The translations under genes and the position numbers were made by a program. DNA of 64,000 nt from Longimicrobiales bacterium (GTDB lineage: Bacteria > Gemmatimonadota > Gemmatimonadetes > Longimicrobiales > Gaopeijiaceae). Positions 40,909 to 46,539 of this stretch are shown here, one piece after another. Numbering within the stretch: the first letter of the stretch is position 1; each line of letters opens with the position of its first letter. Where the stretch lies: assembly GCA_965219445.1 (NCBI GenBank), contig CBDCNQ010000005.1:576001-640000 (forward strand), read 5' to 3'. The notes below the pieces were generated by a model that made no database searches, was not told the DNA's origin, and saw nothing but the letters and a program-made list of their open reading frames with translations.

Positions 40909-43644
40909 TGGTTGGAGGAATAGGGTCACGGAGCGACCACCACGTCTGAATGACCAGCGGCGAGCGCGTTCATCCATGCGAGGGCCAGATCGCGGGACCG
41001 GTAGGTCCCATATGCGGCTGTCTCTTCGCGTTCGACGATGGGAAAGGTCGAGTAGATGTAGCGTATATCCTCCCGGTCCGTCACCCCGTACAGGTGGAAA
41101 TAGAGCGCATCCAGCTTGGCGCGGAGGTGGAGGCGCCTGCCGTCGTCCCAACGGAAGGGCGGCAGTACCTCACCCGCCTCGTCCACGTGGCCCAACTCGT
41201 GGGCAAACGGAGCCATGTCGTGTGCCGTATAGGAGAGTTCCAGCACGGCCTCGCGGACGATCTCCTGCGCCGTCTTGGGTCCGAAGCTCACGGCCCCGTA
41301 CCGCTCCGGTGGTACGACGGGAAGTTGCTCGACGATGAACCAGTTCAGATGCTGGCCCTGGATCTTCTGACGCGCCACGTAGTCGAATAGCACGGCGTTG
41401 AAGTTCGCCAAGAGGCACGTTACGTCGGCCCCGCCGTACCAGTCTGCCGAAACGATGGGGAGCGTGTTCCCTACTCCGGAGCCCGGTATCAGAGCGGCGA
41501 TCATCGAGCGAACGTTCGTTGGCGCGGTGACGTCCTTGAATCCCAGCAGGTATGAGGCTGTCGGGAACGACGTCTTGCCACGGAGCACCCAGTATTGCGG
41601 GTCGGGCAGCCAGTTCGGGTCCCGATGCTGCTCCGGGGTGGCCGGTTTCGGCTGGGCGGGGCGGTGAAGGTTCTTCGGGTTGATGACGATGCTGGCGGCC
41701 CGGTGGTCGAACGCCTGCACCATCTTGCCCTCGTAGAGCGGCACCCATTCGCCGGACCGGCTCTGGTATCGGTTGCCGCCGACCGGCCACGCGCCTTCCT
41801 TATCCTCCAGTTCCGACCGGGTGCGGAACTGGTCGGAGTCGTTGGTCATGTGGAACATCGTCGAGTACTTCACCGGCCACGCCTTCACGGCCTCGCCCGA
41901 CGAGCGGTCCACCAGCACCGGCAAGCGGTCGTAGATCGCCGTCGTGAGTTCCGCGTCGCGGCGCGAGCGGAAGATGGGAGCCGTGCCCGTGTTCGGATTG
42001 ACCCGGGCGAAGTCGGCGGCCGAGAGGGGGAAGCACCGCTCCGGGTCTCCGGTCTCCGAAACGTCTTGCAGAAAGAACGCACAGCGGGCCGGTTCATTCC
42101 CCGGTGCCGGGCTGGCGACGAAGGCGCAGAACTTGAACCGGCTGTCCACGTCTGGGAAGAAAGGCGGCACGTCGTAGCGCGTCCGCCGGTTCTCGAAATC
42201 GTAGAGGGCCTTGAGTCTGCCCTCGGTGGCCACGCTCTTGAAGAACGGGGCCGCCATCTTGTCCGACGCGATGCCGGACGGCACGAGCAGCCCGACCATG
42301 CCGTCGGGCTTGACGAGCGTCATGGCCCGTTCGACGAACAGCGAGTAAAGGTTCAGGTCGCCGCGTGCCAACAGCGGATAGCTGCCCGAGCCGCGGGCCA
42401 CCCGCGCGCCCGCGGCGGCTTGTTCGCTCGCAAGCTGGAAGTCCCCGGCCAACGGGTCTTTCGCCTTCTGGAGTTCGGCGATCATGCGTTTCCGGTCGGC
42501 AGCGCGGGGCGCCATGGCGATCTCGCGCCGGCGGGACGCGAACCATTCGACCTGCTGGAGCTTCATCCGGTCCCATGGCGGGTTGCCGATCACCGCGTCG
42601 AAGCCGCCGGTCAACTCCGCGGCTTCCCAGTCCGACCACACGCCGGGGAACGCCACCTGCCAGTTCAGGAAACGCTCACTGGCTACCAGTCCCAAGGCAT
42701 CCATCAGAAAGGGAAGGTCGGCATCCGACGAATCAGTTTGCTCCCCCTGGGCGACGCCCATCTGATCGCCGAACACACCATCCAACCATTTGAGAAACGC
42801 GGCCTTGACCTCACGCTTTCGGAGGCCCAGCCAGTCGAAGGCGTGAAGAAGCGACATGAAGGCGTGCAGGGGAGCGGTCATCTCCGAGACTTCGGCGAAG
42901 ATGTCGGCCGAACGGTGCGCCTCGGCGATCTCGGCGTCCGTCAACCCCTCTATGATCTGCATCGGCGCAGCCGCGCGCGTGGCCCGCACGAGCGTTCCCC
43001 TCAGGAACAGGCTGCTCTTCTCGTCCGTCCTGCGCACGGCGGGCTCCACCCACGCGCCGAACAGGCTGTCGCCGCAGCGGAGGTGATGATCCAGAAAGCT
43101 CAGCGGGGCGCCGACGGTGAACGTATGGAGCCACAGCGAGACCTTGGTCAGTTCCACCGCCATCGGATTCTTGTCCACTCCGTAGACGCAGCGCTTCAGC
43201 ACCATGCGGCGGACGATGTGCCGGTCGTCGAGTTGGGCCGGATCGAATGTCCAGCCCCTGTCCTCCGCGTTGTCCATGATCGTGTTGCGGATCCCGTCGA
43301 TCCGCTCCAGCAACGGCGAGAGGTATCCGTCCACGAGAGCTTCGGCCTCGGCCATCGCCTCGATAACGCGATCGGCAAGGTAGTCCACGAGGTTGACGAG
43401 GAAGTGTCCAGAGCCCATCGCCGGATCGCAGACCTTCAGCTCCAGCAGCTTCTCTGCCGGGTCTAGCCGCTTCAGGCGACCGATACGGTGGTCCTCCGGC
43501 ATCTTGTTTGACGCGATCTCCTCCACCTTGGCGGCGAAATGCTTCATGCGCGCGTCCGCCAGCGGCCCGACCGTCTCCCGCACGATCAGGTCAACCAGAT
43601 CGTCGGGCGTGTAGTAGCTGCCCGAGTCCTTGCGCGCGAACACG

Positions 43645-44616
43645 TTAGCAACTGTGTTGGAAACGGAGCTGATCGATGGGGATCGCTGGGTCCCACTTCC
43701 GACCGTCGCGGATCATGGCGTTGAGGATGATGAGCAGCTTCCTCATGCAGGCGACGTGGGCCACCTTGGGAGACTTCCCGCGGTCGCGTAGCCGGCGATA
43801 GAACACCCGGATGACAGGGTTCCATTTCGAAGCGCTCAAGCTGCTCATGAAGAGGGCAGATCGAACAGGAGCGCGTCCACCCCAGATCATGCGCTTCCCT
43901 CGGAAGAGGCCGCTGTCCCTAGCGAGTGGGGCGACTCCGACCAGAGCAGCGATCTGCTTGTTGGAGAGTCGACCGAGCTCGGGGAGTTCAGCGATGAGGG
44001 TACGAGCGAGGTTCGGGCCGACGCCGGGTACCTCGCGCAAGAGATCGCTCTTGGCTCGCCAGACGGGACTGTTTCGGATCAGATCGTCGAGGTCAGAGTC
44101 GATGTCGGAGAGCTGACGCTCGAGCCAGCGGATATGCTTCTTGATGCCCTTCTGGACCGCAGGTAGCGCGAAGCCCAGTCGATTGTTCTCGGCCGTGATC
44201 ATATCGATGATCTGGCGCCTACGGCCCACGATCGCGTCGAGGGCACGGGCAGCGTCATCGGGTAAGGGACGGACCTGGGGGCGGACTCGTTCGGCGAAGA
44301 GCGCGAGGATGTGGGCGTCGATCGCGTCGGTCTTGGCGAGTTGGCCCGTGGACTTCGCGAAATCACGCACCTGCCGGGGGTTCGCGATGACGACTGGGAT
44401 CTCAGCGGCTGCGAGAGCTGCAGCCGCGGCGACCTCGAAGCCACCGGTAGCCTCCAACACCACGAGCGTGGGCGGCCTCTCATCCAGACGCTGGACCAAC
44501 TGGGCGATCCCATCAGGAGCATTCGGGACGGTCCACGTCTCGTCTGACCCGGTCAGGGCGACATCGAGTTGGGCCTTCGAGACGTCGACTCCCGCGAAGA
44601 CAGGGGGCAACTCCAT
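43645..44616 (-). CDS. IS110 recombinase (DEDD RuvC-like plus Tnp domain)
   Basis: GVDVSK, LEATGG, KTDAIDA, PGVG, RDSG; GGAGG RBS before ATG 44616. Confidence 0.92.
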
Positions 44617-44821
44617 ACGAACCTCCAAGCTAGTGGCGGCGATTCGTACACTCCCGGCCTTGCACGATGCGGGCTCATAGGCCCTGGCAACTGTTCGAGA
44701 TCCGACGAATCGCGGGCTACGGTGCGACGCCCCAGCTAACGTACGGTCTTCAAGACCCTAGATGGAACGGGCTGTCGCACCTTACTCTGTCTCCGAACAT
44801 GTCGATTCGTCGACATACAAG
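43647..44821 (-). mobile_element. IS110-family (IS621-like) element
   Basis: Core dinucleotide CT (AG on +) at 43647-48 and 44820-21; circle junction ACAGTTG-CT-TGTAT. Confidence 0.92.
44639..44819 (-). ncRNA. Predicted IS110 bridge RNA
   Basis: 5' hairpin; target-binding loop 44721-44781 and donor-binding loop 44639-44713, with guides matching the target and donor. Confidence 0.85.
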
Positions 44822-46539
44822 GACGGACGACGATGTTCCCGCCGTCGCGGACGACCTCCCGTTCGAGCAGCCGCTCGTAGATCGAGCCGAGTTGCTGAAC
44901 CCCGAGATCCCGGTAGTTGATGTACCGGCGCGTCGGGCCATTGCGCTCGAAAGACAGCGCGTCGATCACATCGGCCATCACCGCGTCACCCAGCCGAACG
45001 CGCGAAAGCAGGGGCGTGCGCTCCCGGTCGAACAGTCCACCGTTGTAGGGCGGCAAGCCGATGGAGGCGTCACCCGCATCAATGGCGCGGCACAGGTCGT
45101 CGAACGCCGACCAGTAGCGGGCCGCCGTGACCGAGAACACGTCGCCCTGGTCCTTCCGGCGGCCAATGCTACCGCGTACCTGCTCGCGGAGCGCGTAGTC
45201 GTCGTAGCGGCTGTCGCGGACGGGCAGGAGATCCCGGTCTTCGGCGTAGAGGACGAAGAGGAGCCTGTAGAGCAGGACCAGCGCCGTGTCCCGCACCTCG
45301 GGCAACGGGACCTCGGTGTCCGCCTCGGCGAGTGCCCGGACGAGGTCCGGGAACACGTTCTCGAAGACCAGCGCCGACAGACTGCCGGCGACCCGTTCCT
45401 GATGGAAGCGGCCTTCCTCGATCGCCCGTTCGTGAAACGTTCGCTCGTCGGCCGCGCCGGGAAGAAAGGCATCCCGCCGGAACACCAGCCAGAACACCTT
45501 CAGCCAGTGCGCCCTTTCATCCGTCCCGAGCACCTCCTGCCCGTCGTCCGGATACCCGAGGACCGCCGCCAGATCAAGCTCGAAGAACTGTTCGGCGACC
45601 GAGCGCGCGCCGGCGTAGTAGAGACGCCAGCGAGCGCCGTTCGTCAGGATGCCCCAACGGATCTTCCCAATGGTCAGGTCGTCGATGCGGCGGAGGTAGC
45701 GCAGCATCTGCGTCGAGGGCGCGGACTCCTCACCCCGCCGCCCGGAGCGACGGTCCAGCGGTCGAAGCCACCGTTTCGACTCGACGACCGCCAAGCCGTA
45801 CTCGTAGCGCTTCCATTCCTCGGCGAAGCGGTTCGCCCGGTCCTTCGAGGAGCCGTCGGCGAACAACAAGCCATCCGGCACGTCTTGGCGTCCGTGCGCC
45901 GAGAGGTTCTGCTGCCTGAGGCTGGCAGTCCAGCCGAGCCGCGCCAGCACCGGCCAGATCAGGTCATCCTCGGTCTGGCTCTCGTTGGGCGACAGATCCG
46001 TCGGGAACCGATTGAAGAGGCCACGCAACGCGGCTTCAAGGTCTGCGAGCCCCGCGTCGGCTACGTCCCGCCAGTCCGGAAGCTCGGCGATCGCTTCTCG
46101 AAGGAAGTCCTCGGCGAACAGGCTCCCCTCGAAGGGCCGGACCATCGTCATCCGTAACCTCCCAAGCCCAATAGCCCCGAGTCAGCTTGGCCCAGCAGTG
46201 CAGTCCTTAGTATTGTCGAATCCTCGTCTGACAGTGATCCGGCCGTGCATTCAAACTAGCTCCCGCCGCGCTCAAGCGCGCCTCCTCGAAGGCCCACCCG
46301 AGTCCGCGAGCGAAGCTCTGGCCCTACGCTCGTCGGGAGGTGATGGAGGTGCCGCTGGCGGAGGCCGAGTCGGCACCGGGACGGCGCTGGAACGCTTGGG
46401 AAGTGGCCCCGATTCACGGTGTTGACACAGCCGGAATCGGGCTTCTCCGTGTAGGGTGTGGAGACTCTTGTCCGGCGACAAACGGGGCCGGAAGAGCGGT
46501 ACGTGAGACCGGCGGTGTTGGCAGGTTCGACGCGAGCCG

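Follow-up and report, generated by a model that had tools for sequence, protein, structure and literature searches.

An intact IS621-type IS110 element in a Gemmatimonadota restriction-modification gene, with a predicted bridge RNA that probably aims at integron attC sites

The stretch of DNA analyzed here, called the window, comprises 64,000 nucleotides of a Longimicrobiales bacterium (Gemmatimonadota; GenBank assembly GCA_965219445.1, contig CBDCNQ010000005.1, positions 576,001 to 640,000 of the forward strand) and contains a bridge-RNA insertion sequence of the IS110 family, an element of known type which splits a type IIG restriction-modification (RM) gene. It is probable that this element is an intact, still mobile relative of IS621 whose predicted bridge RNA, reading TCCAT-CT-AACGT, aims at the R' end of integron attC sites on their bottom strand, and that the copy in the window is an off-target landing in the RM gene; the recombination mechanism itself is already established. 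Throughout, G000 designates the host genome (C2 and C5 being contigs of it), G007 another genome, L001 and similar labels related loci, and X1 and similar labels public runs. The element, its ends and the interrupted gene were delimited as follows.

43647..44821, minus strand: IS110 element including both CT cores (1,175 nt; 1,173 bp counting one core)
44820..44821, minus strand: left CT core (junction of left target and right donor), from the junction sequences and element-free alleles
43647..43648, minus strand: right CT core (junction of left donor and right target), from the junction sequences and element-free alleles
44822..44828, minus strand: left target in the host RM gene, a poor in-register match to the corrected guide (4/5 with a one-base slip)
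43642..43646, minus strand: right target AACGT, 5/5 against the right target guide; the AA supplies the last two bases of the recombinase stop codon
44815..44819, minus strand: right donor arm TGTAT
43649..43655, minus strand: left donor arm ACAGTTG, within the last codons of the recombinase gene
44822..46151, minus strand: 5' part of the RM gene (type IIG-like), interrupted by the element
40926..43646, minus strand: 3' part of the RM gene, with Eco57I / N6-methyltransferase domains

The junctions read GTCCGTC-CT-TGTAT (44815-28) and ACAGTTG-CT-AACGT (43642-55). The ends of the element are fixed because in three of four runs homologous RM alleles lacking it connect 43646 to 44821, differing by one letter, and when 1,173 bp are taken out a single RM frame of 1,350 codons without stops results. 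Both ends carry CT and the target is left without a scar, as in IS621. Noncoding sequence amounts to about 200 nt at the left end and is absent from the right end, and no terminal inverted repeats were found among the 25 longest of 74 inverted pairs (minimum length 9). The element is identical over 1175/1175 positions to L001 and L171, loci with different flanks in two other genomes, of which L171 comes from another genus of the family; such identical copies at other sites suggest recent movement. Its nearest named records are metagenome-assembled genomes of Gemmatimonadota. In addition to the copy in the RM gene, G000 carries one frameshifted paralogue (66%; C5:1032640-1033601), which has the right guide TTGTTAG and the flank AACAA and in which other sequence replaces the 5' half of the target loop.

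43645..44616, minus strand: recombinase gene, 323 aa, with D11, E55, D97, D100 and S235, wedge residues F256/M257/L260, stop codon TAA at 43645-47 and GGAGG at 44622-26

The recombinase contains the domains PF01548 and PF02371, that is, a RuvC-like DEDD domain and a Tnp domain with the catalytic serine, and all five of the catalytic residues listed are present. Its best relatives of solved structure are ISCro4 (E 1.8e-40) and IS621 (E 2.7e-35), with which the DEDD residues and the serine align. Between the gene and the left end of the element lie two predicted loops of a bridge RNA, the target loop first and the donor loop second, and the following parts were assigned to them.

44721..44781, minus strand: predicted target-binding loop (outer stem 44774-81/44721-28, bulged A 44773, inner stem GCCC 44769-72 with GGGC 44729-32, stem-loop 44745-57)
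44639..44713, minus strand: predicted donor-binding loop (stem 44705-13/44639-47)
44760..44766, minus strand: corrected left target guide TCCAT+CT (5 nt and core), covariation at positions 3-8
44736..44742, minus strand: right target guide ACGTTAG (core and 5 nt), followed by handshake bases 44734-35
44687..44694, minus strand: left donor guide ACAGTTGC, 8/8 against the donor
44659..44668, minus strand: discontinuous right donor guide (AT 44667-68, 3-nt bulge, GCAAG 44659-63) with handshake bases 44657-58

In an alignment of the target loop, 96.8% of cells are paired and 12 of 17 pairs have changed on both sides; the GCCC/GGGC stem includes one pair that, over 29 rows, shows 6 compensatory changes and is never broken. 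Compensatory changes were counted with controls for the target loop, and for the donor loop they are given only in the predicted consensus. As a single sequence, the left end folds in an unremarkable way (z -1.14), so that the structural support comes from the alignment, and a scan against Rfam yielded no family above a gathering score. A preliminary description, made from the letters alone, had recognized an apparently intact IS621-type IS110 element with a two-loop bridge RNA at its left end, and the CT cores, the intact DEDD and serine residues and the covarying target loop support this recognition; the junction, stem and guide strings that it quoted were likewise all found where it had placed them. 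It had overlooked the probable attC target and the stop codon that the landing site provides.

For the reading of the guides, relatives were collected from genome and metagenome collections. A total of 89 donor-loop hits gave 71 distinct parsed rows (11 hits were without a parsable target loop and 7 were duplicates), of which L155 was later removed as mis-parsed; the full left junction was present in 57 rows (34 distinct loop sequences) and the right junction in 50. The loci are related and hence not independent; permutation and Fisher values therefore exaggerate significance, and it is the contrast between registers that counts. The right target guide ACGTTAG at 44736-42, as named in the preliminary description, agrees with the right flank at 5/5 positions in 34, at 4/5 in 9 and at 3/5 in 7 of the 50 loci, and covaries with it over 19 guide variants, each position being reached by 0 of 2,000 permutations. 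The exact 7-nt guide was obtained in 6 of 20,000 shuffles of that side of the loop.

The left target guide had been given as GCCCGTTC (44765-72), with the site in the RM gene as the intended target. Across the 57 left junctions this register shows 27.4% identity compared with 26.7% for permuted pairs (667/2,000), whereas core-aligned registers show 53% against 40% and 50% against 37% permuted, each reached by 0 of 2,000 permutations; by position, target positions 3-8 exceed permutation (0.40, 0.67, 0.81, 0.82, 0.91, 0.89) and positions 1-2 do not. In IS621, a scaffold precedes the guide (PMC11208158). Since the first four bases of GCCCGTTC, GCCC, pair in the covarying inner stem and answer to this scaffold, the left guide is read as TCCAT+CT at 44760-66. 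The identity of GCCCGTTC to target positions 1-8, which is 6/8 at this single site, was reached by 1,592 of 20,000 shuffles (8%). One attC copy in G000 does match the full target of the preliminary description at 12 of 13 positions, and it is nevertheless very unlikely that GCCCGTTC guides the element to the RM gene. The site that had been predicted for further copies, GCCCGTT-CT-AACGT, has 0 matches in G000. As this genome holds no other copy, insertion sites in other genomes were inspected, and the prediction fails there: the element has four further left flanks, which agree with the predicted target at only 1-2 of 7 positions. Guides with an AT core mostly occupy AT-core sites, with a 9/9 match in L101. 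In L153 and L159, the right guide is CGCTCAG and the sites are short palindromic repeats, not attC, an instance of natural retargeting in this clade.

Of the two donor guides, the left one, ACAGTTGC at 44687-94, stands as first described. The right guide had been given as the contiguous GTGCAAG (44659-65), of which the GCAAG part is retained; its GT fits 13 of 28 distinct loops, whereas in 27 of 28 an AT farther upstream, beyond a bulge of 1-3 nt, fits the final two bases of the donor, which disfavours the contiguous form. Handshake bases also covary, target T7 accompanying an A in the donor loop in 5 of 9 cases and a G in 5 of 47. A split right donor guide has the layout of IS621 (PMC11208158). 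From the guide-site pairs taken together, the target is read as 5+2+5 positions, strict on the right and loose on the left.

The core boxes of attC follow the consensus RYYYAAC. The corrected target TCCAT-CT-AACGT and the variants of the relatives read like such a box, and many right flanks run on into long hairpins ending in GTT. Calls of attC were made by an own layout rule and a profile trained on 10 attC copies of G000 free of the element, and were applied to 45 of 53 distinct flanks (7 were too short and L030 was omitted) and to 2,824 control sites from G000. With rule and profile united, 16/45 right flanks were attC-like compared with 36/2,824 control sites. Flanks beginning with AACG were attC-like in 13 of 32 cases, all of them at R', as against 22 of 1,045 AACG controls (about 40% and about 2%), and flanks beginning with AACA in 3 of 11, all at R'', as is predicted by the TTGTTAG guides. 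Four flanks that were not called (L004, L005, L097, L135) form long attC-like hairpins by eye, and the identical element L171 is located at an attC arm. The architecture of attC, an AAC...GTT hairpin with paired L boxes and an extra base, was found by the same rule and profile, and arrays lie beside intI in G000 and G007. G000 has an integron integrase scoring above the cut-off, accompanied on one side by five attC copies and an attI-like site, an arrangement that sets the strand; in G007, a relative of the element sits within an intI-linked array, opposing the cassette strand. The sole site in G000 that matches the corrected guide at 11 of 12 positions, C5:685322, is an attC copy without an insertion; of 15 sites with at least 10 matches, 4 are attC. 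Mean matches to the corrected guide were 4.44 at attC sites and 2.60 at other sites. In both genomes the integrase gene is co-directional with the cassette array (G000 C2:398571-399551; L201), and insertion sequences are abundant in both arrays.

Several observations weigh against attC as the intended target. The flank of the window copy is among 29 of 45 that were not called attC, and none of the 19 attC R' ends in G000 holds the element. The spacer of the attC rule was widened after misses, with 8/29 flanks called at first and 11/28 thereafter (14/2,824 controls), and 15 flanks fetched later gave 2 calls by the rule and 5 with the profile added. The guide of the preliminary description also ranks an attC copy top in G000 (the 12/13 match given above), with means of 3.61 at attC and 2.40 elsewhere. 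Six right flanks belong to the same or near-identical ends (the window, L001, L171, X1 and two in X6), and of these two are attC-like and one is without any guide match. Finally, neither a circle junction nor a transcript of the bridge RNA was observed. Among the flanks of these ends in public runs are an attC arm and a flank closer to the donor than to the target; the overlaps are short and may stem from relatives.

These points bear on the alternative that the guides specify a loose motif only, about CC[A/G][T/C]-CT-AACGN, and that the excess of attC arises from tolerance or from repetition of the motif instead of adaptation to integrons. Such a motif would accommodate the uncalled flanks, the empty R' ends and the looseness of the left matches at positions 1-3. 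It is at odds with the enrichment of attC among AACG flanks over AACG controls and with the guide variants GC-CT, AT-CT, GT-CT and AC-AT, each followed by AAC, which conform to the attC consensus; moreover, the class of guide predicts whether R' or R'' is used. We regard the loose motif as an improbable account of the data, and attC is best read, from these sequence comparisons, as a preferred but not exclusive target. No paper linking left-end bridge RNAs to attC was found in the literature covered, which did not extend to ISfinder or bioRxiv supplements, where such a target might be recorded; the seekRNA literature that names attC concerns IS1111.

Six attC copies of G000 (C2:384111-393852, C2:287471, C5:253921) are cut at R'' by one and the same sequence, with which another IS110-family element ends; the protein of that second element shares only 26% identity, over 208 aa, with the recombinase described here. 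It appears that this attC family is used by two separate RNA-guided lineages, at opposite ends.

With attC as the preferred target, the insertion in the RM gene is itself likely to be an off-target landing. The preliminary description had stated that the guides read out the actual insertion site, an idea that is not supported: the right side matches at 5/5, but the corrected left guide is identical at only 1/5 positions, plus 2 wobbles, in register, and at 4/5 after a one-base slip. The left match of the window copy is among the worst of 57. Slipping by one base lifts 3 of 6 poorly matched sites to at least 3/4 (chance 7.7%) and 0 of 51 well-matched sites, a post hoc and weak result. A half match on the right side only has been described for IS621 (10.64898/2026.08.31.748434) and fits the window landing as well as the slip does. 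The poor left match might also indicate a dead remnant in which guide and site diverged by decay after insertion. This we consider scarcely credible: two further genomes carry copies with 100% identity at different sites, no catalytic residue has been lost, taking the element out leaves the RM frame open, and contigs of element-free RM alleles align to the same left-target stretch.

The recombinase gene does not contain a stop codon itself: its frame continues across the left donor arm, and the TAA on which it ends consists of the T of the core and the AA of the target. In all 38 of 38 loci whose frame reaches the core, TAA, TAG or TGA is made there (this count leaves aside nine loci lacking an intact frame and one that was mis-parsed), and of 10 relatives with an earlier stop of their own, 6 still have stop-making flanks. 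The guide itself asks for AA, so separate selection on the stop codon is not shown. In a tree, 25 rows with target-made stops were grouped weakly (87/51) and long-branch outgroups were present, so the events are not placed in any order. Joining of the ends in the circle would lengthen the frame by 12 residues. Dehalococcoidia relatives (L014-L022, L030) also end their frame on a target-made TAA or TAG and have extra palindromic sequence before the donor arm. Transposase stop codons supplied by the target or flank are known from IS870, ISMt1, IS1547, IS1110 and IS1239 (PMC13630536).

A promoter may be formed by the joined ends of the element, and a candidate for its -10 part lies at the left end.

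44796..44801, minus strand: candidate -10 hexamer, 17 nt after a -35-like TTGCTT that is formed only by the joined ends

In this -10-like hexamer, A2, T5 and T6 are invariant over all 39 of the related left ends. A second -10-like hexamer at 44784-44789, often YAGAAT in relatives, stands directly before the stem of the target loop and could be an internal promoter that does not need the circle. No end-to-end joint was found in contigs from 4 runs over 43300-45200 and from 4 over 43641-44828, which, coming from contigs alone, proves nothing. The RNA runs X15 and X16 contain relatives as contigs spread over the element (in X16 one piece, with 65 other letters) and are uninformative on expression of the bridge RNA. 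The Rfam family sX15 (RF02234), a small RNA of Xanthomonas, aligns over its full length antisense to the bridge RNA at 44635-44796 (plus strand) with 36.8 bits, under its gathering score of 55, and an E value of about 1e-4. sX15 and asX7 are complementary and were detected by Northern blot, and 10 homologues are present in Stenotrophomonas maltophilia K279a (PMC3300014). The sX15/asX7 pair may be an unrecognized IS110 bridge RNA and its antisense.

By analogy with IS621, for which the circle, the junction promoter and exchange at CT have been described (PMC11208160, PMC11208158, PMC13626964), the element would excise as a circle whose joined ends would form a promoter and drive transcription; the RNA would then bring donor and target together, and strands would be exchanged at CT with the aid of the handshake bases. 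The landing in the window would have been driven by the perfect right match together with a one-base-slipped or weak left match. Integron integrase IntI has its crossover point within attC; an insertion at R' would keep GTTAG two bases past that crossover, the element would start the next cassette, facing against the array, and the attC carrying it would still work. A more far-reaching proposal is that this Gemmatimonadota IS621-type lineage has adapted to integrons in three linked ways: it would aim at the AAC that attC core boxes invariably contain, sister lineages taking opposite ends; it would keep GTTAG and ride in cassettes while the site stays alive; and it would take its stop codon from the TAA of attC, the form in the circle being 12 residues longer, as a switch. 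As a whole, this proposal is put forward only tentatively and is rather unlikely to be correct.

The element shares with IS621 and ISCro4 (IS622) the DEDD and serine residues, CT cores, a left-end RNA with the target loop before the donor loop, a similar donor (PMC11208160, PMC11208158, PMC13626964, 10.1101/2025.05.14.653916; PDB 8wt6, 9t56), the bulged A and G scaffold positions, a discontinuous right donor guide and handshake bases. It differs from IS621, as portrayed in those sources, in that the left target guide has 5 nt and the core instead of 7 and the core, the right target guide is used in full (core and 5), the target is likely attC, and the coding frame crosses the donor arm without a stop of its own. 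The supplementary data of Durrant et al. (2024; PMC11208160), in the part available, hold related donors and a few CTAAC targets, unlabelled, from which it follows that the wider clade was in their alignment. ISPpu10 is likewise an IS110-group element with a left-end bridge RNA, a tolerant left and a strict right interface and a structured target (10.64898/2026.03.19.712850). Its guides have six positions on the left and five on the right, so a left guide shorter than that of IS621 is not new; its targets are REP sequences, and the word attC is absent from the available portion of that text.

Elements of the IS1111-attC group (ISKpn4, ISPst6, ISPa21, ISPa25) also use an RNA-guided DEDD recombinase to enter attC, antisense to the cassettes (PMC11187229, PMC3001079). 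Antisense insertion into attC was found in the present clade (16/45 flanks) and not for the window copy. According to the available portions of these sources, the guide RNA of the IS1111-attC group lies downstream of the transposase gene, whereas here it lies upstream and the gene extends as far as the right core; that group is described as having sub-terminal inverted repeats of 7-17 bp, and here none were seen among the same 25 longest inverted pairs, with their minimum length of 9; and insertion is near the 5' end of attC, whereas 13 of 16 in the present clade are at R' (3') and 3 at R''. Group IIC-attC introns insert into the bottom strand of attC as well, opposite to the cassette genes (PMC3001079), but are retroelements with an unrelated mechanism. 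IS870 and ISMt1, mentioned above for their stop codons, have a CTAG target, and no RNA guide or link to attC is described in the portion of the source available (PMC13630536). In a plasmid search, the nearest named element was ISMno7, an IS110-family element with the same recombinase type and 52% protein identity.

The RM gene is flanked by open reading frames of 1,239 aa (36849-40568) and 387 aa (48463-49626), neither of which has a Pfam match at 0.001; the latter resembles a tyrosine recombinase in its motifs. The region around the RM gene may be a defence island, and the window copy provides an example of an off-target landing that splits a defence gene.

The reading of the guides also carries a caution, as inspection of a single site had yielded a register that was convincing and yet wrong. 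The set of guides and sites, with 34 loop variants and one identical element at several sites, bears on the off-target rules of bridge recombinases, and the stop codon supplied by the target links, in an RNA-guided element, the evolution of the guide to translation. With attC as its probable target, this clade would add a second RNA-guided route into attC, from the branch with left-end RNAs and mostly at the attC end opposite to that used by the IS1111-attC group.

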